A stretch of 64,000 nucleotides of DNA from Escherichia phage vB_EcoM-ZQ1, in the sequence record MW650886.1; one strand, written 5' to 3'. The notes below the pieces were generated by a model. It did no database searches. It had not been told where the DNA came from and worked only from the letters and a program-made list of their open reading frames with translations. Positions 6,872 through 29,513 of this stretch are shown piece by piece. The translations under genes and the position numbers were made by a program. Position 1 is the stretch's first letter; each line of letters begins with the position of its first letter.

Positions 6872-6900
6872 AGTATAGGAAAGGATATTGAAGAAGTAAA
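6872..6900 (-). promoter_or_regulatory. T4-type early promoter (-35 TTTACT, -10 TATACT)
   Basis: TTTACT - 16 bp - TATACT on minus strand; same cassette as at 39977 and 50705. Confidence 0.5.
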
Positions 6901-6914
6901 GGGGCGAAAGCCCC
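6901..6914 (-). terminator. stem-loop terminator
   Basis: ggggcgaaagcccc hairpin flanked by T-rich sequence. Confidence 0.45.
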
Positions 6915-6929
6915 TTTTATTGAATTATT

Positions 6930-7568
6930 TTACGGCGTCGGATTCACAACCGGAATGTGGGATCGAATACCTGCGATGATGTCCTTCAGCCGAGGATTCC
7001 ATCCACCCACCAAACGGGGGAGAGCGATAGCGCCAGGCTGGACCAAAATGATGTCGCTGCCTGTGATATTGTGCTGAGGGAACTGAGCAAGGTACTGCTC
7101 CATGGCGACACCCTCATCAATCAGAACAGGACCGACATCAGATGACGCGTAGGTTGCACCCAGACCGTCAACGCCCCATGCCAAGATACCCCAGTCAGGG
7201 ATGTTGGCTTCAGATGTGATGGTGAATCCAAACACGGTGTTCAGCGAAGTAAAGGAATAGACATCGTGGGTGATGTCATACACCAGATACCCCTTGGCCA
7301 GCATATCGGCAAAGATCGCGTCCGTATCGCCAACAGCCGGAGTCGGCACAGTAAACAACAGCTCGCCATCAGGAGGAGCAGGATACGTGCCGAGGGCATA
7401 GAGGCACCATGCATCAATGCACTTCTTAATGAACGCCTCTGGCGCGACATAATCAGCAAGGCGAACCGTACCTGAGTACTCTGATACGATAATGCCTTCC
7501 TTCGCACCCTGTAGAGCAATGAAGACCAAGATATGTTCATATCCGGCCTGAGATGGAGTGATGTTCAT
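6930..7568 (-). CDS. hypothetical protein (212 aa)
   Basis: ORF; internal ATG 7568 overlaps stop of upstream gene. Confidence 0.5.
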   Translation of the reverse strand: MNITPSQAGYEHILVFIALQGAKEGIIVSEYSGTVRLADYVAPEAFIKKCIDAWCLYALGTYPAPPDGELLFTVPTPAVGDTDAIFADMLAKGYLVYDITHDVYSFTSLNTVFGFTITSEANIPDWGILAWGVDGLGATYASSDVGPVLIDEGVAMEQYLAQFPQHNITGSDIILVQPGAIALPRLVGGWNPRLKDIIAGIRSHIPVVNPTP

Positions 7569-8182
7569 TATCTTGTCCTCTTCAGTTTCTCTATTGTGTG
7601 CTTGTTCATGGCGATCACCTGAGGATCTACCTCGGAGATGGTCCGGCCTTCGAAAGACACACATTTCTGAAGATATTTAGCTTTCTTCACGACGTCGGCA
7701 GCATAAGCGTTCGATGCAGGATTACGGGCGAAGCCAGCATTGTAAGAGGAGAGGGATTTGCGGATATTCTGATTGTGATAGGTCAGCCAGAACTGCATCT
7801 CATCGAGGGCGGCTTGCGCGGCATATTCTTGGTCGGTCAGCAACTTTATGGCGACATTGGCATAGCACTTGCGATTCTTACAACCTTCGCGATCACCAAC
7901 TGTCTTCACCTTGTTCTGAAAGGCTCCCATGTTGGCCGCCTTGAGACCGTATCGCATTGACACTACATCTTCACCAGCGCGGCTCTCTCGCCAAGATATG
8001 GCGGCCAGAGTGTAGCCAAGATCTTGTGTCTTGCCTACGTGATAGGCGGTTGCCATCGTATTAAGTTGTTGCTCGGAGAAATTATAAACACATTGACTTG
8101 TATTTTGGGAAGCGTGCACATTCCCGCTGGCAATGGTAAAGGTCACGGACAAGGCCATGGCCTTCAACGTTGTCATCGTCAT
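7568..8182 (-). CDS. secreted protein, possible lytic transglycosylase-like
   Basis: N-terminal signal-peptide-like segment; weak ES...GAFQ motif. Confidence 0.4.
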   Translation of the reverse strand: MTMTTLKAMALSVTFTIASGNVHASQNTSQCVYNFSEQQLNTMATAYHVGKTQDLGYTLAAISWRESRAGEDVVSMRYGLKAANMGAFQNKVKTVGDREGCKNRKCYANVAIKLLTDQEYAAQAALDEMQFWLTYHNQNIRKSLSSYNAGFARNPASNAYAADVVKKAKYLQKCVSFEGRTISEVDPQVIAMNKHTIEKLKRTR

Positions 8183-8278: not shown

Positions 8279-8563
8279 TCATTCGTAGATGAGGTGGTAG
8301 GATTCCTCGATACACTCCAGCCAGCCATAGACGAACTGTAGAGGGTCATCCCATGCCGTCTTGGTCGCGACGGTAAAGTTGCCGTCCAGGATCTGCATAT
8401 CTTGGTACTTGTTGAAAGCGAGTACAGCATCAACCACAATCAGGCCGCCCTGCTCAAGATAACGATTCGGAGTGACGGCCACTTGGTAACGAGGATTCCT
8501 GTGATTCCATATCTCCACAGCAATGTCACAGGAATCCTGAATTTCATCTTTGGTTTCTGACAT
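8279..8563 (-). CDS. hypothetical protein (94 aa)
   Basis: ORF in same-strand gene run. Confidence 0.45.
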   Translation of the reverse strand: MSETKDEIQDSCDIAVEIWNHRNPRYQVAVTPNRYLEQGGLIVVDAVLAFNKYQDMQILDGNFTVATKTAWDDPLQFVYGWLECIEESYHLIYE

Positions 8564-8873
8564 ACGTTTGTCTCAGGTGTTCAGTAAAGGATTTACCCAG
8601 CTTGCGGAATAGTTTAATACGACCAATGACTTTGACGTAAACATCTCCGTGGCAGGGGCGTGGCTTACACCAGCACCCCAATACCTTCCCGTCAAGCTCA
8701 AGGAGTTCATCCTCGGTGATATCCCCTTCAATCAGGCGCACATACAGGTCTTCTTCAAACAGTTCGATACAGACGCCTCGTCCATGGTCTTTGACCTCAA
8801 ATGGGTTCCCCCATTTACCAGGCCGACCAATGTAGACGTCATATGGCTCCTTCTTGAAGTGGACGACTTTCAT
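8544..8873 (-). CDS. DUF4326-like conserved phage protein
   Basis: HFKKEPYDVYIGRP..WGNPF ... CWCKP.PCHGDV motif pattern. Confidence 0.4.
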   Translation of the reverse strand: MKVVHFKKEPYDVYIGRPGKWGNPFEVKDHGRGVCIELFEEDLYVRLIEGDITEDELLELDGKVLGCWCKPRPCHGDVYVKVIGRIKLFRKLGKSFTEHLRQTYVRNQR

Positions 8874-8874
8874 T

Positions 8875-9033
8875 TCAGGATTTGACCTGCAAGTAGATAA
8901 CAGAACCAGACAGAGAACCCGAGATACCCCAGTGCTTTCAGGTAGTTTTTCCTTTCGACTTCACGAGAAAATGCAATGATGTCAATGATGCATGCAAAGA
9001 CCAGGATTGCGAGTTTAATTTGTTCGTAGTTCA
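8875..9033 (-). CDS. small hydrophobic protein (52 aa), not in ORF track
   Basis: ATG at 9033, hydrophobic core, fills gap between flanking genes. Confidence 0.3.
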
Positions 9034-9036
9034 TGA

Positions 9037-11382
9037 TCAATCCTTCTTGATAACTTCAGTCAGGCCGTTTCGCAGGCCGTAGCGAATGTTGTGTTGGAAG
9101 TATTCCTGGAACTCCTGTTCGCGCTGGCTAATAACAAACAGGTTGTTCCCGCCGAACTTATGCTTCAACATCTCAACCGATTCCTGCACCCCGCGCTCGC
9201 TCATGTTCTCAAGGATCTCGTCCAGCACGAACAGGTTACATTGTACAGACGCCTTGAGGTTAGCCACATCGCGCAGAGCTAATGTCACAGCCAGGTTCAG
9301 ACGACTGCGCTGGCCAGTAGACAGGGAGAAGATACTCTGTCCTTTGCGGCCTGCTGCGCTCATGGTGATCTCAAAGGTATCGTCAACAACGATGTCCAGG
9401 AACATGTTGAGGGCTTCAAGATACTCGTTGATCTTGCTATTGAGGAATGGCAGATACAGGGCGATGATACGCGCCTTGGTCTGGTCATCTTTCAAGAAGA
9501 ACAGCAGGTGCTGTAAGTCCTGGAGTTCTTGGTCGGCATCCTCGCGGCGCTGGTATAGATCCTCCAGTTCACCTTCCAACGCAGCGATGGAGTTCTCCAG
9601 GTCGGTGGTAGGTGTTGGCTTTACAGCCAGTTTACGCTCCAGATCGGCAATAGACGCCACGAGAGGAGCACGACGGGCTTTCAGCTCGGCGATCTTATCA
9701 TCGACGGCTTTAATCCCGCTAACGGCATTCTCTCGCGTCTGTTGCAGCGACGCAGTGATGTCTTCAAAACGAACGTTCATTGCCTTACGGATGTCAAGGA
9801 TCTTCTGTTGGCATTCACGGTTCAGCGAATTACACTCAATCGTGGCGACATCATGAAAACCTTGAATATCACGGCGCAGCTGCTTGATGTTGTCAACGAT
9901 TTCGTCGGCCTGCTTGCGCATTGCATCAAGTTCAGCATCCAACACAGCAATGTCAGCAACCAGCTTGTCGTCCTGGGCTTTGTGGTCATCGATCAACACA
10001 GTGACTTCGGCGGTGACTTTATCCAGCTGGTCCAGCTTCGCCTGTAGATCCTGAATCCGAGGATTGTACTCGCTTTCAATGCGCGCCTTGGTATCGTCGG
10101 ACACCAGTTGGGTACATGTTGGGCAAGTCCCCATGTCGTGGAAGCGCTTGATGGCCGACTGATGCCCCTCCATTTCAGTCTGGAACTTGATACGGAAGTT
10201 CTCACCCTGCTGGCGGCGCTGAATAGCAGCGTTCAGGGTGTCCAGGTTTGTGTTGCGCTTGGTGAGCAGGGTGTTCTTGCGTTCGGCCACTGTAAAGGCG
10301 CGGTCACGCAAGACCTGAAGTTCATGCTCCGCAGTAGACACTTCGATGCGCTCATAATCATCGGCCTTTTCCTGAGCGGCATCCTTCACCGCCTGGATCT
10401 TGGCATCAAAGTCTTTCTTGACAGCCTCGATCTCTACCATGGATTCATCATGCAGGCGGCTTTCCACCGTCTTCATTTCCTGGGTGGCTTCAAACTCCAC
10501 AGCCGTGAGGCGGGTGCGCTCCTCATTCTGCGCGGCAATGTCAGCATCCAGGGAATTCAGGGCTTCCTGTTGCTGTACAAGGATATCGGCCGACTGCTGT
10601 TGGATCAGGGCGTTGGATTGCTCGATCTGCTGAAGCTGCGTCTTCTTGTTGGTGTGGTCAACAACCTTCAGTGCGCATTCGTTAGATATAGAGTCCAGAG
10701 TTGCATTTGTCCTTTTGATGGCGGCCTTGACATCTTCGTTCATCAGGCTGAAGAAGCCCAAGTCCCAGATAGTCTCCACCATGGCGCGGCGGTCGGCTGT
10801 GTACATCTCCGTGAACGGAATGAACTTCTCTTTACCCAACACCAGAGAGTTCTCAAACATCTTCTGGTCTACACCGATGAGGTTCACGATGTACTTGTTC
10901 ATGTCGGCTTTGGCTGCTTCGTTATCGATCTGCAACCACTTGCCGTCCACCATCTGGTAGACTTCAACAAAGTCAGGTTTAATGCCACGGCGAACCTTCC
11001 ATTCGCTACCACGGCAGGCAAACTCCACCTCACCCACACATTCCTTGCGGCTCTGTGAGTTAACCAGGCCTGCCTTCTTCTCCTTCTTGCTGTATGTGTC
11101 GTTGTACAGTACGAAAAACAGCAGCCATACCAGCATCGTGGATTTACCCGCGCCGTTGTCATCAGACGTGACAAGGGTGGCCGGGTTGCGCTGATAATCA
11201 ATCTCCATGAACTGATTGCCGATGGAGCGGAAGTTCTTGGCGCGGCCTTTGCGGAAGGTCAGTTTGTGTGTAACAACGTTACGCACTTCAAATGGGACTT
11301 CAACCTCGACCGGGGCGTCGGCTTCCTTCAAAAGATTACCAAATTTGGTCAAGATATCTGTGCTCTGAGTCATGTTATGCAT
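9037..11382 (-). CDS. 46: recombination endonuclease ATPase subunit, gp46 / SbcC-Rad50-like
   Basis: Walker A GAGKST at N-terminus, coiled-coil middle, LSTGQRSR signature and D-E Walker B at C-terminus. Confidence 0.8.
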   Translation of the reverse strand: MHNMTQSTDILTKFGNLLKEADAPVEVEVPFEVRNVVTHKLTFRKGRAKNFRSIGNQFMEIDYQRNPATLVTSDDNGAGKSTMLVWLLFFVLYNDTYSKKEKKAGLVNSQSRKECVGEVEFACRGSEWKVRRGIKPDFVEVYQMVDGKWLQIDNEAAKADMNKYIVNLIGVDQKMFENSLVLGKEKFIPFTEMYTADRRAMVETIWDLGFFSLMNEDVKAAIKRTNATLDSISNECALKVVDHTNKKTQLQQIEQSNALIQQQSADILVQQQEALNSLDADIAAQNEERTRLTAVEFEATQEMKTVESRLHDESMVEIEAVKKDFDAKIQAVKDAAQEKADDYERIEVSTAEHELQVLRDRAFTVAERKNTLLTKRNTNLDTLNAAIQRRQQGENFRIKFQTEMEGHQSAIKRFHDMGTCPTCTQLVSDDTKARIESEYNPRIQDLQAKLDQLDKVTAEVTVLIDDHKAQDDKLVADIAVLDAELDAMRKQADEIVDNIKQLRRDIQGFHDVATIECNSLNRECQQKILDIRKAMNVRFEDITASLQQTRENAVSGIKAVDDKIAELKARRAPLVASIADLERKLAVKPTPTTDLENSIAALEGELEDLYQRREDADQELQDLQHLLFFLKDDQTKARIIALYLPFLNSKINEYLEALNMFLDIVVDDTFEITMSAAGRKGQSIFSLSTGQRSRLNLAVTLALRDVANLKASVQCNLFVLDEILENMSERGVQESVEMLKHKFGGNNLFVISQREQEFQEYFQHNIRYGLRNGLTEVIKKD

Positions 11383-22979: not shown

Positions 22980-25181
22980 TTAGATTTTGATTTCTTTCTC
23001 TGTCAGTTCGGCAGTGACCTTGTACTTCACGCCATCCACTTCAACTTCCATGGTGGACTCTTCCAGGTCGAGATCGGTGAACCAGCCATGGCCAGCAACG
23101 ATACCATAAACCACTTTAGACAGCGTCTTGTTCAGGGCACGGACTTCGGTGATGGCCGCCTTGGCAGCAGCGTCGATCCAGTTTTCGATCAGCTGTTTCT
23201 GTAAGGCTTCAGGCACGGCAGTGATCATAGGAGACTTCACGAATGCTTCGTACTCCTTCAGCGCATTGGCGATGAACAAGTCACCAGCATTGAGTTTCTT
23301 GTTCTCGGCAATCTTCTTCTGTACCGCTGCGATAGACGGTAGAGATGAAGCGCCAGCGATCTTCACGTTCAGCTCACGGCTCATGTAGAAGTCGGTAGAC
23401 TCTTTGGTCTCAGTCTTCGGTGAGAATCCGTAATCGCGGATGCCGTAGGAGGACAGGAACTCGGCCGCCTCAGCGCCGTACTGTACTGCCAGGCCTTTGG
23501 CGTTACCCTTACCAACCAGGGCGTCTCGATAGAACTTCAGCACCTTCTGCTTGCCTTTCAGGGCTTCCAGACGGACATTATCCGCAAAGAACTGAGCAGC
23601 ACTGATGTTCTTGACCATGGCGCGGTTGACCAGCGGTACGCTTTCCAGGTTCAGGACAAACACTTCCGGACCACCAAACACGTGGACGCCCATTTCGATC
23701 AGCTTCTGTACAACTTCGATATCAGCCTTGAACGGTAGAGTCTTCACGTTAATGATACCGTCTTTGACGATGGTGTAGTTGCGCCACTGGAAAGTATCCA
23801 GTTCTTCAGGCAGGCCAAACTTCTTCTGTGCGAATTCAGGCACAGCCACAGTACCGTGTTGAATTGTACGCACGCTGATGTTCGGGCGCTCGGAGTTATA
23901 GACCAAATCGCTGATTGGCACAACACCCAGGTCGTTGGTAGGTTCGAACGTCGGGTTCCACTCTTCGTGTTCTGCCAGCTTGAGAGCCAGGGCTTTACGC
24001 TCTTCTTTGGACTGAGCATTCGCGATCTGTTCTGCCAGCTTGTCTTCGGTGTCGTCGGTTTTCTGCACAGTACCGCGCCCGATGCTCTTATAGGAGAACA
24101 TCGGATGCTTGGTAGCAACAGGCACACCAGCTTCAGCCAGGTACGTCAGCACGTCAACGACGGTCGTCGCATCTTCAGCCGGAACCAGGTCATAGTCAAT
24201 ACCGTCAACGCCGCGCAGCTGGTCATCAACGATGGCCTGGGTCAGATCGTTCTTGATGTTGGAGTAGTCCTGCTTGGTGAAGCAGTTGCTGTACTGTTTG
24301 ATGAAGCGAACGTCGCCCGTCTTCTTCAGCGCAGCCCAAACCAGATCTGCGTCCATAGTGTGTACGCCGTAGAACGCCAGCACATATGCCGCCTGGATGT
24401 CCGTCAGGCTATCCATCTGGTCGATCATGTTGGGGTTTACAACCCACAGCTTGGTGACGCTCTCAGGGATGCTCACGTGGCCGATAGGATGGTCTTCATC
24501 CGGCTGTACCGCCAGCACAGTTGCTACGCCGTTTTCAACATAGATGGCGTGGGTGTATAGCAGAGGCACATCAACAACCACCTTCGGCACTGATGACTTC
24601 AGCACGTTTTCCAGTTCGGTCTGGTATTCGGTCTGACCTTCGGCAAACACGTGAGTTGCGCCAGAGCGCTCGGACATCTGCGCCAGCAGTTCACGGTTAC
24701 AGTGCCAGCCGTATTCGATGAAAGTAATGTTATCGAACGCGGAAGGAAGTTTTTCGGCGGTATCCAGGATTTCATTGGAGTGCCAGCAGTTGTCATAACC
24801 ATCGGTCATGAATGCCAGGTTGTTGACGTAGCCAGGTTTCTTCAGGTCACGCGCAGTATCCATCGCCAGTTTCAAAGGCTCAACAAAGCCAGTACATCCG
24901 GACGGTTGCAGGAAGCGATCGATCAGTTTGTTCAGCTCGCTCAGGTCAGACGCAGCACTAACCTGGCGGCCAGCGAACACAGTACCAAAGTCTCCTTTGG
25001 AGGAGAAATACAGAACGCTCACAGTGTCTTCCGGTTTCACCAGGGAAGGCAGGTTCTCCTTCAGATGCTTACGGACTTCAGGGAGCGCACGGTACATAGA
25101 GCCGGAAATGTCTACAACGATTACATGGTTGGACGGAGCAGCAGTCGCAACCGCATTCTTAAATTCTAATGATTCAATCAT
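22980..25181 (-). CDS. von Willebrand factor A (vWA) domain protein (~733 aa)
   Basis: MIDAS motif VIVVDISGSM near N-terminus; start at internal ATG 25181 with GAAGAAGG RBS. Confidence 0.6.
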   Translation of the reverse strand: MIESLEFKNAVATAAPSNHVIVVDISGSMYRALPEVRKHLKENLPSLVKPEDTVSVLYFSSKGDFGTVFAGRQVSAASDLSELNKLIDRFLQPSGCTGFVEPLKLAMDTARDLKKPGYVNNLAFMTDGYDNCWHSNEILDTAEKLPSAFDNITFIEYGWHCNRELLAQMSERSGATHVFAEGQTEYQTELENVLKSSVPKVVVDVPLLYTHAIYVENGVATVLAVQPDEDHPIGHVSIPESVTKLWVVNPNMIDQMDSLTDIQAAYVLAFYGVHTMDADLVWAALKKTGDVRFIKQYSNCFTKQDYSNIKNDLTQAIVDDQLRGVDGIDYDLVPAEDATTVVDVLTYLAEAGVPVATKHPMFSYKSIGRGTVQKTDDTEDKLAEQIANAQSKEERKALALKLAEHEEWNPTFEPTNDLGVVPISDLVYNSERPNISVRTIQHGTVAVPEFAQKKFGLPEELDTFQWRNYTIVKDGIINVKTLPFKADIEVVQKLIEMGVHVFGGPEVFVLNLESVPLVNRAMVKNISAAQFFADNVRLEALKGKQKVLKFYRDALVGKGNAKGLAVQYGAEAAEFLSSYGIRDYGFSPKTETKESTDFYMSRELNVKIAGASSLPSIAAVQKKIAENKKLNAGDLFIANALKEYEAFVKSPMITAVPEALQKQLIENWIDAAAKAAITEVRALNKTLSKVVYGIVAGHGWFTDLDLEESTMEVEVDGVKYKVTAELTEKEIKI

Positions 25182-25344
25182 CGTTATTGCCTTCTTCAGG
25201 GTTGTCTTCGGCCTCACCTTCCGGCTTGGCCAGCATATATTCAAGGAAGTCGCGATTGAGTTCAATCTGACTCATCAGCGTTTCGCTCGGTTTAAAGCTG
25301 AGGTCGATGGTGTCTAGACCAGCTTTCTTGAATGGTTCTGTCAT
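25174..25344 (-). CDS. small acidic protein (56 aa), not in ORF track
   Basis: ORF whose stop overlaps vWA start (ATGATTGA). Confidence 0.3.
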   Translation of the reverse strand: MTEPFKKAGLDTIDLSFKPSETLMSQIELNRDFLEYMLAKPEGEAEDNPEEGNNDD

Positions 25345-25437
25345 GGTTAGTCGACCTTCACTTCAGTAACACCAGGTATTTCACGGACATGGGCCAGGCC
25401 TCTGTTTGTTAGTCATGGCGTATTATACTGCGAAGGG

Positions 25438-25683
25438 TTAATTGAAACGCCCAGCATTTACGCTGGACGTTATTGATATTGAAAAGGTTTTGACAAACTC
25501 AGGATTTGGAGGAAGCACCCTTCCATGTCTGCCGTCGCCATGGGCATGGCAACCGACACGGGCATCACATGGAGTGCACACCCAGAACTTCAGATTGCGG
25601 AGGTCAGGGCGATGAGGGTAGAGAACATCACCACCGACGAATTCGGCTGGGAGGCCACAGTAATCACATATAACAGGTTTCAT
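25438..25683 (-). CDS. zinc-ribbon protein
   Basis: CDYCG ... CTPCDARVGCH Cys/His cluster. Confidence 0.45.
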   Translation of the reverse strand: MKPVICDYCGLPAEFVGGDVLYPHRPDLRNLKFWVCTPCDARVGCHAHGDGRHGRVLPPNPEFVKTFSISITSSVNAGRFN

Positions 25684-25743
25684 ATTCTTTGTCCAAAAGA
25701 AACCCCGCACATGGCGGGGTTGCTCAGGCCGAGGCCAACAGGG

Positions 25744-26115
25744 TTATTTCAGCAGCGCTTCCAGTTCTTCAACAGATTTGCTTTCCAGCTCTTGCTGTTT
25801 CTTACGCTGGATCAGCTCCAGGATAATCTGGTTGTTCGCCTTACGCTCTGCCGCTTCTCTGCTGTCGTCACGTTCTTTCAGCTTAACGCCGATGATGTGC
25901 TTGACAACGTCGAAGCGCAGCTGCAGTTCGGAGTCAACGTTGCTTTTGGTGCCAATGAAATCTTCTTCATCGGTTTCTGCTGCTTTCACCTGACGGCTCA
26001 GACCTTTCGCCATTTCGTTCAGGGCAGTCAGGCTCAGGTCCCAGACCTGCTCAACAGACAGCAGACCTTTGTTAGACTCGAAGCGCAGTTTCATACGGGT
26101 TGCTTTATCAAACAT
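25744..26115 (-). CDS. hypothetical protein (123 aa)
   Basis: ORF, helical, charged. Confidence 0.5.
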   Translation of the reverse strand: MFDKATRMKLRFESNKGLLSVEQVWDLSLTALNEMAKGLSRQVKAAETDEEDFIGTKSNVDSELQLRFDVVKHIIGVKLKERDDSREAAERKANNQIILELIQRKKQQELESKSVEELEALLK

Positions 26116-26159
26116 TTTACTATCCTCAATGATGAATGGGTTACAATTTCAAATCAGGT

Positions 26160-28178
26160 TTAGAACACAACTTTCACAGTGCGGTTGAACGAACCGCTCA
26201 CCTTCACGAACACGTGGTTGCGTTGGGTGGTAGAGAAGCCCAGACCGGACAGCTGCTCAGTGCTTGGCTGTACTTTAATCTTACCACCTAACATTTCAAA
26301 AACCTTGCGGTGTTTATCAAGTTCCGGCTTCAGATATTCGTTATAGAAACCACGGGTGCCGACAGGGTTAGCACAACCTTCCAGGATGAAGAACACGTGC
26401 TTGTTGCCAGTCTGCTCGCCGTCCCAATGGTTTGGTGAGTTCAGAACCAGCTGTACCTTCTGGAAGACGGAGGTCTTGATACCCCAGATTTCCTGAGAGC
26501 GAGCGTCGTCTTTCAGGGTAGAACTGATGTCAACCACCTGACCAGCGCGAACCTGAACCACAACAGCCAACGTGCGATCTTTGTTACCCAGGCCAGGGTG
26601 TGAGAAGCGCTTAGTCTGACCTTTGTATTCAACTTCGATTTCGAAACCAACGTCACAGGTTTCACGCTTGTTGAAGTTGGTGACATAGAACTCATAATTC
26701 CCGTCGCGCAGCTTGCTTTCATCGCTAAAGAAGATGTTCTCCACCGGACGGCGGTTTGGATCAATGCCGTCCATACCGTTCATGTCGATGTCCAGAGTTG
26801 CGCCAGTTGACGAACGACGGTTGCGAAAATATACGTGGTTGTGAAGAGGATCGTTCATGCTCAGATCCAGGTCGTCGTTGTTATGCCAAGCCAGTGACAC
26901 GCGGAGGAAGCTGTCGACATTGCCGCCTGCGGTCTTCACGCGCTCTTTGATGGAGTCGGCCACTTCGCCATTGTACGACCAGCTGAAGCCGTTGTTCCAC
27001 TTGAACAGGTTAGGAGCGCCTGCGGTAGCCGGAGCGATCAGGGACATCAGGTTGCCAATGTGAGAGTTTTCAACCAGTACTTCCAGGGAATGCGCCTTTG
27101 GCAACACGTTGGTCAGGAAGTCGTCGATCGTGATCTCTTCAACCTTGTCCAGGGACTTGGTCGGAGTCTTCACTTCAGACGCCAGCTGAGCAAACGGGTC
27201 CATCTTCTTCTGAGCTGCCAAATCGGCGAACAGAACGTTGTTGATGGTCAGATCGTCATACACGGCATAACGGCGACCCAGTGAATCAGTCAGACCCAGC
27301 GCTTCGACTTCTTTCTGCGCGTTTTCAATCATCGACTTCGTGACCAGCGCGGTTGGGCGCTTGTAGTTCGTCGGAGCGACTTTGGCTTCAAAGGACTTCA
27401 CGGCGGTTTCCAGATCCCGGCCTTCATTGAGGTCTACCAGCAGAGAGCCAATCACGGTATTACGAATGCCGTGAGGGATATGACCGTTTGCACGGTAGCC
27501 AGTGCGCCAAGCCCACAGAGCGCGTTTCTCTTCTGCAGTTTGTTCGTACAGGGTCTTGTTCACCACGAACGCCTGCACTGCCGCTTTGTGCTCTTCACCG
27601 CGATACAGAGAATTCTGGTCAATCAATTCCAGAACGATTTCAGCCGATTCCAGAGACAGTTCACGCAGGCCGCGCTCAAACACTTCAATCGCCTGGCGGA
27701 TTTCACCCTTCTTAGAAGCGATGGTATCTGCCCGCAGAACATAGCTACCCAGCAGGTCGGTGTGGAAGTGGTTGTAGGTGCGGACAATACCGTCTTTCAT
27801 TTCGTGATTCGACCCAACACCAACTTTCTTGGTGTCGTTGAAGTACACATCGACGATTGCGTGCTGCTTAACATATGCTGACAGCGCCGCAGCGACAACG
27901 TCGTATTCGTTACCCAACTGAATGTTATCCCAGATAGAGATCACGTTCAGGTCGGAGTCGATGGTGACCACACCGCCGATATTACGGATGAATTGTTTAC
28001 AGCAGGTACAGTCGTGCTCGGTACGCTCACGATAAAGCGGGTTAGTGCCAGCAGGGAAAGAAGACAGATACAGATCCCACAGAGCATCTTTATCGATGTT
28101 GGTCATGAACAGACCAGTTGCTGACATGGCCAGCACGTTATTGTTGACAGCTACTGCGAAGGGCTTAAAATCTGACAT
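26160..28178 (-). CDS. large hypothetical protein (672 aa)
   Basis: long ORF; no polymerase or P-loop motifs recognised. Confidence 0.6.
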   Translation of the reverse strand: MSDFKPFAVAVNNNVLAMSATGLFMTNIDKDALWDLYLSSFPAGTNPLYRERTEHDCTCCKQFIRNIGGVVTIDSDLNVISIWDNIQLGNEYDVVAAALSAYVKQHAIVDVYFNDTKKVGVGSNHEMKDGIVRTYNHFHTDLLGSYVLRADTIASKKGEIRQAIEVFERGLRELSLESAEIVLELIDQNSLYRGEEHKAAVQAFVVNKTLYEQTAEEKRALWAWRTGYRANGHIPHGIRNTVIGSLLVDLNEGRDLETAVKSFEAKVAPTNYKRPTALVTKSMIENAQKEVEALGLTDSLGRRYAVYDDLTINNVLFADLAAQKKMDPFAQLASEVKTPTKSLDKVEEITIDDFLTNVLPKAHSLEVLVENSHIGNLMSLIAPATAGAPNLFKWNNGFSWSYNGEVADSIKERVKTAGGNVDSFLRVSLAWHNNDDLDLSMNDPLHNHVYFRNRRSSTGATLDIDMNGMDGIDPNRRPVENIFFSDESKLRDGNYEFYVTNFNKRETCDVGFEIEVEYKGQTKRFSHPGLGNKDRTLAVVVQVRAGQVVDISSTLKDDARSQEIWGIKTSVFQKVQLVLNSPNHWDGEQTGNKHVFFILEGCANPVGTRGFYNEYLKPELDKHRKVFEMLGGKIKVQPSTEQLSGLGFSTTQRNHVFVKVSGSFNRTVKVVF

Positions 28179-28292: not shown

Positions 28293-29513
28293 TTATTCAG
28301 GTTTCTTCAAACGGTCCAGCAAATTGACGGAACCACGTTTGAGCACGACTTCATCACAGCGCTTTTTGTATTCCCCACCGCCGTCATATCCAACCTTCCC
28401 GCGCGGTTTTTTACCTTGCTGTATGGCCTCTACACAACGAGTATATTTCGACAATTCACAAAAGTGGTTTTCTAATTGTTGAACATTCATACACTGATCC
28501 CAAGGCTCTTCCGCAGACCAAAATTCTTCCCTGTTATACCCAAGAGGGCCATAAACCGCGTCCTGATTGTCCCGCAACCAGAAGATGCATTCTTCATGCG
28601 TCATGCCATCTTTGTCCTGGAACATCAGGTCGATCCCTGCGCGACAGCCTGGTCCAGCAACCGTGAAGTGGTTCTCACTGAAAGGATATTCAGGAATGTA
28701 AGTGAAGTCAACCCATATCTGATAGGCCAGGAATGGGCCAAGCCCTTCGATGTCGTCATACATGCGCTGGTATACTTCCAAAGGAGTACCAAGGCGCAGC
28801 AGGTCATGGAAATAATTTGGATACTTGTTGACGAATGCCTTCAGGGAGCGGATGACACGCATTGGCATGTACGGTTCCCAACCTTCGATGGTGTAGAAGT
28901 CCGGCTCTGCTTCGGCTATCGCCTTGGCTTCTTTATAATCCATGTTCTGGGTTGAACCGTCTTTACAGATCAGATTCACCATCATCCCACCGAAGCGCTG
29001 CTCCTTGTGGTTGACAACCATCTCAGGGAAAGCCAGGCATTGCTTCAGGCCGCCCGTGTTGAAGGCATTGGTGAATACCTTACCACCGTCGGCCTCGAAC
29101 TTCTGAAGTCGTTCGCGGGTTGCATCGAGGTTGATCTCGGCGAATTCTTTGATCGTCATCGCGCCGCCGATAGCCTGGATTGGATCCCAGAGGTTGAACA
29201 TGCGGAACAACACGCAGTTGAACATCTTGTCGGCCATACCCAGAGCATCATTCTTGGCGATGTTGTTGATCAGGTTGAGAGACTGCCTGTCGTGCTCTCT
29301 CCGGACGTTACAGAATTTAACCTGGCGTAGTATGGGATTATCAGTCCAAGGAGCAGGAAGGCGCTGGACGTCCTTCTTGACGTGGATCTGATAACGATCG
29401 CGCATCCATTCGTAAGACAGGCGGGTATGGGTCGGGCTGAGAACCGGTTTGGCCGACTTTATCTTTTCTTCACGGACACCGCAGTACGGGACGTCCAGGG
29501 CTTTATCTTTCAT
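28293..29513 (-). CDS. hypothetical protein (406 aa)
   Basis: long ORF; family not recognised by eye. Confidence 0.55.
   Translation of the reverse strand: MKDKALDVPYCGVREEKIKSAKPVLSPTHTRLSYEWMRDRYQIHVKKDVQRLPAPWTDNPILRQVKFCNVRREHDRQSLNLINNIAKNDALGMADKMFNCVLFRMFNLWDPIQAIGGAMTIKEFAEINLDATRERLQKFEADGGKVFTNAFNTGGLKQCLAFPEMVVNHKEQRFGGMMVNLICKDGSTQNMDYKEAKAIAEAEPDFYTIEGWEPYMPMRVIRSLKAFVNKYPNYFHDLLRLGTPLEVYQRMYDDIEGLGPFLAYQIWVDFTYIPEYPFSENHFTVAGPGCRAGIDLMFQDKDGMTHEECIFWLRDNQDAVYGPLGYNREEFWSAEEPWDQCMNVQQLENHFCELSKYTRCVEAIQQGKKPRGKVGYDGGGEYKKRCDEVVLKRGSVNLLDRLKKPE

Follow-up and report, generated by a model that had tools for sequence, protein, structure and literature searches.

The locus at positions 8544..9034 of Escherichia phage vB_EcoM-ZQ1 raises the question of what two adjacent small open reading frames (ORFs) on its minus strand encode, and whether their products act together. 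We analyzed a stretch of 64,000 nucleotides (nt) from sequence record MW650886.1, hereafter the window. An earlier note on this DNA, made from the sequence alone, had described here a DUF4326-like protein of 109 amino acids (aa) and, next to it, a small hydrophobic ORF. Both are genuine genes, located within a long minus-strand replication/recombination operon. The explanation that we consider the best as a whole combines these two genes with an enzyme acting on phosphorylated ribose, encoded by the DUF4326 gene, and an accessory membrane hairpin protein that is probably not an obligate partner of DUF4326; our confidence in this combination is evenly balanced.

The 109-aa ORF (8544..8873, minus strand) reads MKVVHFKKEPYDVYIGRPGKWGNPF...GCWCKPRPCHGD and carries the motifs that the earlier note had described. 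Its proposed assignment to DUF4326 was confirmed by the Pfam family PF14216, which matches with 83.6 bits (cutoff 25; E = 1.6e-23) over model positions 3-80 of 82. The protein also matches phrog_464 (E = 2e-46) and is 41% identical to the product of a Tequatrovirus gene annotated as NrdA.1, which is located between td and nrdA. The 109-aa product is a standalone DUF4326 domain of the T4 NrdA.1 type. It shares with PF14216 and T4 NrdA.1 the motifs YDVYIGRPxxWGNPF and GCWCxPxxCHGD and a full-length match to the family model, and NrdA.1 is likewise a standalone protein of ~100 aa from the DNA/nucleotide-metabolism region of a large myovirus. The two differ in their neighbors, which are td and nrdA in T4 but gp46 and gp47 here, and in an extra C-terminal helix (residues 96-108), common only to close Ackermannviridae relatives of our protein. 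The family is large: a word-indexed protein search returned 1,852 homologs, a profile search returned 24,420 cluster representatives at 50% identity, and homologs were found in 2,160 of 50,697 phage records.

The protein consists of a core domain (residues 1-80) followed by the lineage-specific C-terminal helix. The AlphaFold2 (AF2) model, with a predicted local distance difference test score (pLDDT) of 95.5 and a predicted template modeling score (pTM) of 0.86, contains a strand at 2-5, a short strand at 13-14, helices at 27-30, 32-49 and 54-58, a strand at 64-67, and helices at 75-91 and 96-108. A Foldseek search against BFVD aligned this model to that of a Serratia phage DUF4326 protein with a template modeling (TM) score of 0.92 and a root-mean-square deviation of 0.6, and gave 29 viral matches at E <= 0.001, of which the named ones are nearly all DUF4326. 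The family motifs D, GR, GNP and GC-x-C-x-P-xx-CHG are all present and are conserved in 67 close homologs and in 156 diverse domains. Among the latter, 12 positions are conserved in at least 95% of sequences (G16, R17, G22, N23, P24, L60, L65, C67, C69, P71, C74 and H75) and a further four in at least 85% (D12, W21, R32 and K63). The residues of our protein listed as invariant are D12, R17, G22, N23, C67, C69, P71, C74, H75 and G76; the conserved positions thus place three cysteines and one histidine within nine residues.

One relative departs from this pattern. In phage AV101 the equivalent region (8713-8874) contains an extra G in a G-run (GGGG to GGGGG) that shifts the DUF4326 frame, and only a 53-aa fragment is annotated there. 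The shift may reflect an error in sequencing the homopolymer or, alternatively, a natural knock-out, in which case the gene would be dispensable.

We propose, with moderate confidence, that DUF4326 is a predicted phospho-ribose-processing enzyme, this being the most likely mechanism suggested by its conserved residues and domain associations. Such a small enzyme would act on phosphorylated ribose, and its substrate would be a small molecule derived from ADP-ribose or a nucleic-acid terminus. In the putative active site, the invariant loop G-C67-W-C69-x-P71-x-x-C74-H75-G-D, between a beta-strand and a helix N-terminus, would form a cradle that binds anions, with the invariant D12, R17 and G22-N23-P24 loop packed beside it. 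In the AF2 model, C67 ends the strand 64-67 and H75 starts the helix 75-91, a predicted arrangement that has the geometry of an anion-binding loop. Longer members of the family are fused to SLOG domains of the YAcAr, DprA or LOG type (P0158, P0166), to Macro (P0257) and to RNase H (P0250), or consist of tandem DUF4326 repeats; fusions in BFVD carry the labels DUF2493 and 'NADAR with protein tyrosine phosphatase'. These fusion contexts independently reproduce those found by Iyer, Burroughs, Aravind and colleagues. According to the published predictions, DUF4326 processes the terminal phosphates that ADP-ribose derivatives carry on their ribose, or else links NAD-derived signaling to DNA modification (PMC9503650, PMC7824862). 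The SLOG, Macro and RNase H fusions together with the invariant GCWCxPxxCHGD loop fit the prediction of a ribose-phosphate/ADP-ribose enzyme.

DUF4326 is a candidate member of the rhodanese-phosphatase superfamily (RapZ-C / DUF488 / DUF4326 clade). A cysteine at a strand end, followed by a loop and a helix N-terminus, is a rhodanese-phosphatase feature that appears in the predicted structure of DUF4326. RapZ-C has the same order of elements, namely a strand, G-C, a loop and a helix starting H-[R/G]-[S/D]-V, preceded by a [Y/F]DV...R...NP[F/H] loop. Compared with RapZ-C, the DUF4326 loop is three residues longer and holds two additional invariant cysteines, the CX5R arginine is absent, and neither sequence nor structure gives a statistically significant match. 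Of 67 family members, 17 gave weak matches to the Pfam family DUF488-N3a in the region of the Cys loop and the helix after it (best E 0.0056). An hhalign comparison with YeaO of E. coli, which belongs to DUF488 but has no Cys/His motif, gave nothing.

Several observations weigh against the phospho-ribose enzyme. The hhalign comparison of DUF4326 with a profile of 95 RapZ-C sequences was not significant (Prob 0.2%), nor was that with a single RapZ-C sequence; the non-significant register pairs YDVYIGRP..GNPF with RapZ FDVRFLPNPHW and LGCWC..CHGDV with IGCTGGKHRSV. Foldseek found nothing below E = 3 for the DUF4326 model in the PDB, and the family sequence profile gave no meaningful match to any PDB chain. 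The classic CX5R phosphatase loop is missing, as R72 is not conserved, with K, Q and L also occurring at this position. In a full-text literature search, the domain was mentioned in computational or descriptive work only, and neither biochemical nor genetic data turned up for any member of the family. No NAD or ADP-ribose gene was found in the 64-kb window. We also considered NAD-salvage genes as local support for an ADP-ribose role and rejected them, since the AV101 pair of nicotinamide phosphoribosyltransferase (NAMPT) and phosphoribosyl pyrophosphate (PRPP) synthetase genes is deleted here. The deletion site lies at 25185-25419 (24881-27732 in the AV101 locus, L007); the genes missing from it encode nicotinamide phosphoribosyltransferase and ribose-phosphate pyrophosphokinase, and tblastn finds neither in the window. 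Finally, a structural zinc site would be an equally good account of the Cys3His cluster.

The last point leads to the alternative that survives best, although we consider it unlikely: DUF4326 would be a non-catalytic module, stabilized by zinc through three cysteines and one histidine, that binds nucleic acid or a partner protein and assists the gp46/gp47 nuclease or the replication machinery. The spacing of the invariant C67, C69, C74 and H75 within nine residues is typical of zinc knuckles, the gene always lies within DNA-metabolism operons (with gp47/gp46 here and td/nrdA in T4-like phages), and a fusion to RNase H exists. However, the invariant polar residues outside the Cys cluster (D12, R17, N23, R32 and K63) point to a substrate pocket, and the recurrent fusions to SLOG and Macro, domains that handle ADP-ribose or nucleotides, suit an enzyme better. 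Moreover, C74 and H75 are adjacent, and an adjacent Cys-His pair rarely coordinates the same metal ion.

The second gene occupies positions 8870..9034 of the minus strand and precedes DUF4326 in the direction of transcription. The earlier note had correctly placed a small ORF directly upstream of DUF4326 on the same strand, although its title had the ORF following DUF4326, its text gave 52 codons and its coordinates ended at 9033. Read from the ATG at 9034 to the TGA at 8872..8870, the ORF comprises 54 codons, or 56 if an in-frame TTG at 9040 is taken as the start. It is indeed absent from the ORF track, probably for a trivial reason: ORFs below 60 aa do not enter the default listing, which would explain the omission, and a listing with min_aa = 30 contains the ORF. 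The gene is not unannotated, as had been claimed, since it is present in the GenBank records of phiSboM-AG3, A221, AV101 and PC3 and is covered by phrog_34593. In phiSboM-AG3 it is orf00117, a 'hypothetical membrane protein, two transmembrane domain found using Phobius and TMHMM', which is 96% identical, equal in position and built of the same 54 codons; there is essentially no difference between the two, and they represent the same gene in sister phages. The gene is called 'putative membrane protein' in A221 and AV101 and hypothetical in PC3. The only PHROG match, phrog_34593 (E = 1.3e-40), covers 54 of 54 positions with conserved synteny and has unknown function; NCBIfam holds no family for either this protein or the DUF4326 protein.

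Instead of the single hydrophobic helix described before, the 54-aa protein contains two. Its hydrophobic segments, at approximately 6-22 and 34-53, are separated by a charged loop, SREVERKNYLK, and AF2 places helices at 3-27 and 31-53 with a pLDDT of 91. An acidic residue (D18) is conserved in helix 1 and an FCYLLA motif in helix 2. The protein is predicted to form a hairpin of two helices and has the characteristics of a protein of the inner membrane.

The ORF exactly spans the gap between the gp46 stop codon (9037), which lies 2 nt before the ATG, and the DUF4326 start. The upstream gene of the same operon, gp46 (9037..11382, minus strand), encodes a Rad50/SbcC-like recombination nuclease subunit identified by Pfam matches to SMC_N and the SbcC Walker B region and named Gp46 in the annotation of relatives. 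A Shine-Dalgarno-like AAGGA (9041..9045, minus strand) lies within the 3' end of gp46, 6 nt ahead of the ATG, and GAGGA is found at the equivalent position in Kuttervirus and Limestonevirus. At the other end, the stop codon overlaps the DUF4326 start in the 4-nt sequence ATGA (8870..8873, minus strand), identical in L004, L005, L006 and L013, which suggests translational coupling of the two genes. The 54-aa gene would be translated from its own Shine-Dalgarno sequence, and its termination would probably help initiation of DUF4326 via the ATGA overlap.

By nucleotide identity the source phage is an Agtrevirus-like member of Ackermannviridae. A 4-kb stretch around 8544-9034 is 98% identical to the Escherichia phages PC3/PH4 and 91-97% identical to other Agtrevirus-like Ackermannviridae (A221, AV101, phiSboM-AG3 and SKML-39). 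The order of genes on the minus strand across the whole region is gp55 (late sigma factor), gp47, gp46, the 54-aa gene, DUF4326, a 94-aa ORF, a Vs.1/SLT-like ORF of 204 aa and a gene for a DUF7270 protein. Using tblastn, we found the 54-aa ORF in 37 phage records. In all records inspected for gene layout, DUF4326 directly follows it, and the features named at the remaining matches agree with this arrangement.

The 54-aa protein is 92-98% identical within the Agtrevirus-type phages and 41-48% identical in Kuttervirus and Limestonevirus, and the alignment of the three genera has 54 columns without a gap. Residues E4, K7, D18, F22, Y37 and G39 and the stretch FCYLL are invariant across them. Between genera, synonymous sites are saturated, with a proportion of synonymous differences (pS) of ~0.82, as compared with ~0.37 for nonsynonymous differences (pN); the ratio of nonsynonymous to synonymous substitution rates (dN/dS) is 0.23 for Kuttervirus versus Limestonevirus. 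In the eight sequences compared, 31 first, 20 second and 42 third codon positions vary, and the frame of the gene is the sole open one among the six in all eight. The gene is under purifying selection across the three genera. From the conserved length and frame, pN far below pS, the bias of variation toward third positions and the conserved Shine-Dalgarno sequence, we conclude on comparative grounds that the 54-aa ORF is a real protein-coding gene. The synteny, the gapless alignment, selection, the AF2 model and the single open frame support the suggestion of the earlier note that its product is a genuine small membrane protein.

Whether the hairpin protein belongs with DUF4326 is a separate matter. 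The junction between gp46 and DUF4326 (8870-9036 in the window) was compared with the corresponding loci L004, L005, L009-L013, L015 and L018-L024, and is hypervariable across Ackermannviridae. The 54-aa hairpin gene alone is found in the slot of the window type, whereas Kuttervirus and Limestonevirus carry the hairpin gene together with a gene for a 102-aa basic protein. In the phage MK-13 and at L020 and L021, the 102-aa gene is accompanied by one for a 53-aa protein with two transmembrane segments and an unrelated sequence, labeled 'holin' in RefSeq with no evidence in the record. Further divergent or unrelated hairpins of 51-59 aa occupy the slot at L019 and L022, a 30-aa peptide with a single transmembrane segment at L011 and L012, the 102-aa gene only at L018, and unrelated acidic 102-aa proteins at L009 and L010; the slot of the Klebsiella type is empty. 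By this distribution, the 54-aa gene is an apparently dispensable, rapidly turning-over accessory that does not accompany DUF4326 throughout the family. A general pairing of DUF4326 with small membrane ORFs was rejected on a survey of 64 viral DUF4326 loci, in which a small hydrophobic ORF lies just upstream at 8 (5 of them in Ackermannviridae) and just downstream at 3.

The idea that the two proteins form a functional pair, with the hairpin tethering or regulating DUF4326 at the inner membrane, is accordingly one that we regard as doubtful. In its favor, the 4-nt ATGA overlap joins the genes in every lineage that has both, and Ackermannviridae repeatedly fill the position upstream of DUF4326 with small hydrophobic proteins of similar size despite their differing sequences. 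On the other hand, DUF4326 is kept without a membrane ORF in the Klebsiella type, at L009, L010 and L018, and in T4-like phages; at loci from outside Ackermannviridae, a small hydrophobic ORF is no more frequent upstream (3 of ~55) than in the downstream control (3 of 64); and replacement by proteins of unrelated sequence makes a specific interface unlikely. The 54-aa protein is thus probably no obligate DUF4326 partner. An equally doubtful extension of these data would see the gp46-DUF4326 junction as a diversification hot-spot, in which unrelated two-helix micro-proteins of 51-59 aa (and one 30-aa peptide) are repeatedly installed in translational coupling to DUF4326; they could be arms-race determinants involved in superinfection exclusion or membrane anti-defense, or even a membrane-gated partner of an ADP-ribose-processing counter-defense enzyme.

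Somewhat less credible still is a second alternative for the function of DUF4326, by which it would be a miniaturized relative of the NADAR/YbiA fold, with N-glycosidase activity on ADP-ribosylated DNA bases or ADP-ribose-derived signals. No family member matches the Pfam NADAR family (PF08719) even at E = 10, a strong fold match to NADAR was not obtained either, and the existing DUF4326-NADAR fusions suggest complementary rather than identical activities (PMC9503650). The phospho-ribose enzyme remains our preferred prediction.

For the 54-aa protein, we propose by analogy a fast-evolving, dispensable accessory whose site of action would be the host membrane, where it might, for instance, contribute to superinfection exclusion or modulate a host membrane protein. 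The comparison is with T4 Imm and similar small inner-membrane proteins that phages express early; like the 54-aa protein, they are of hairpin type, come from genes that lie among non-structural ones, can be dispensed with and differ from one relative to the next. Imm and the 54-aa protein are not similar in sequence, and the proposed likeness is a functional one. A search with PADLOC gave no match for the 54-aa, DUF4326 or neighboring 94-aa protein beyond one marginal match.

A holin or pinholin, possibly working with an SLT-like protein that bears a signal peptide and is encoded ~0.7 kb downstream, is a very unlikely identity for the hairpin protein. The small size and two-helix transmembrane topology agree with it (holins are expected to have at least one transmembrane domain), its positional analog in the RefSeq record of Shigella phage MK-13 is labeled 'holin', and the Vs.1/SLT-like 204-aa protein with a Sec-type N-terminus is encoded at 7568..8182 in the same orientation. 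But the Klebsiella type, L009, L010 and L018 retain the SLT-like gene and lack the 54-aa gene, which argues against a holin, as an essential holin would be indispensable. The C-terminus (...LLAGQILK) has no charged tail, and the gene lies behind gp46 in a replication/recombination operon rather than in a lysis cassette, with neither a promoter signal nor the late motif TATAAATA nearby. The MK-13 protein has no detectable homology to the 54-aa protein, and its label carries no evidence.

The weakest alternative, that the small ORF is a spurious, untranslated open frame in an intergenic spacer, is extremely improbable: the ORF is short, random ORFs of 30-60 codons are numerous in the region, and our literature search on Ackermannviridae expression found no direct expression data for it, but its length is exactly kept across three genera despite their divergence, substitutions follow a coding pattern in a single open frame, and it is tied to its neighbors by a conserved Shine-Dalgarno sequence and coupled start and stop codons.

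The remaining features of the region concern the neighborhood of the two genes. The 94-aa hypothetical protein (8279..8563, minus strand) matches phrog_4165 (E = 1e-48) and is annotated in all relatives inspected. The start of its gene overlaps the 3' end of DUF4326 by 20 nt. The protein has no family assignment, yet its position is occupied in every Ackermannviridae relative inspected, so that this gene is a more constant neighbor of DUF4326 than the membrane gene. Farther downstream, the Vs.1-like 204-aa protein (7568..8182, minus strand) has a Sec-signal-like N-terminus, MTMTTLKAMALSVTFTIASGNVHA. Its match to the SLT lytic transglycosylase family is sub-threshold (E = 4e-4; 20.2 bits versus a cutoff of 21.3), and the labels given to it in relatives are inconsistent (RegB, Vs.1 or MltF-like).

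Scans for promoters and terminators gave results at chance level, and no T4-type late-promoter motif (TATAAATA) was found near the two genes. A GC-rich hairpin, AGTAAAGGGGCGAAAGCCCCTTTTATT, is located at 6895-6921, just beyond the end of the DUF7270 gene (6930), and could be a bidirectional terminator closing the minus-strand operon. Elsewhere in the window, a 406-aa protein (28293-29513, minus strand) strongly matches the helical domain of 5-hydroxymethyldeoxyuridine (5-hmdU) DNA kinase (PF18723, E = 2e-80), which fits the thymidine hypermodification pathway known for this phage family.

Both genes were already known: sister phages carry annotations for them, and family databases list them. 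The finding is therefore an ordinary one, and the hypervariable micro-protein slot is its only mildly interesting departure. DUF4326 is among the most widespread small domains of phages and giant viruses, occurring in ~4% of phage genomes and in 24,000 clusters at 50% identity. Its confidently modeled compact fold, which has no close solved counterpart, and its distinctive Cys3His loop would make it a tractable biochemical target. The variable slot for micro-membrane-proteins upstream of it is a small example of the turnover of accessory micro-proteins in phages.
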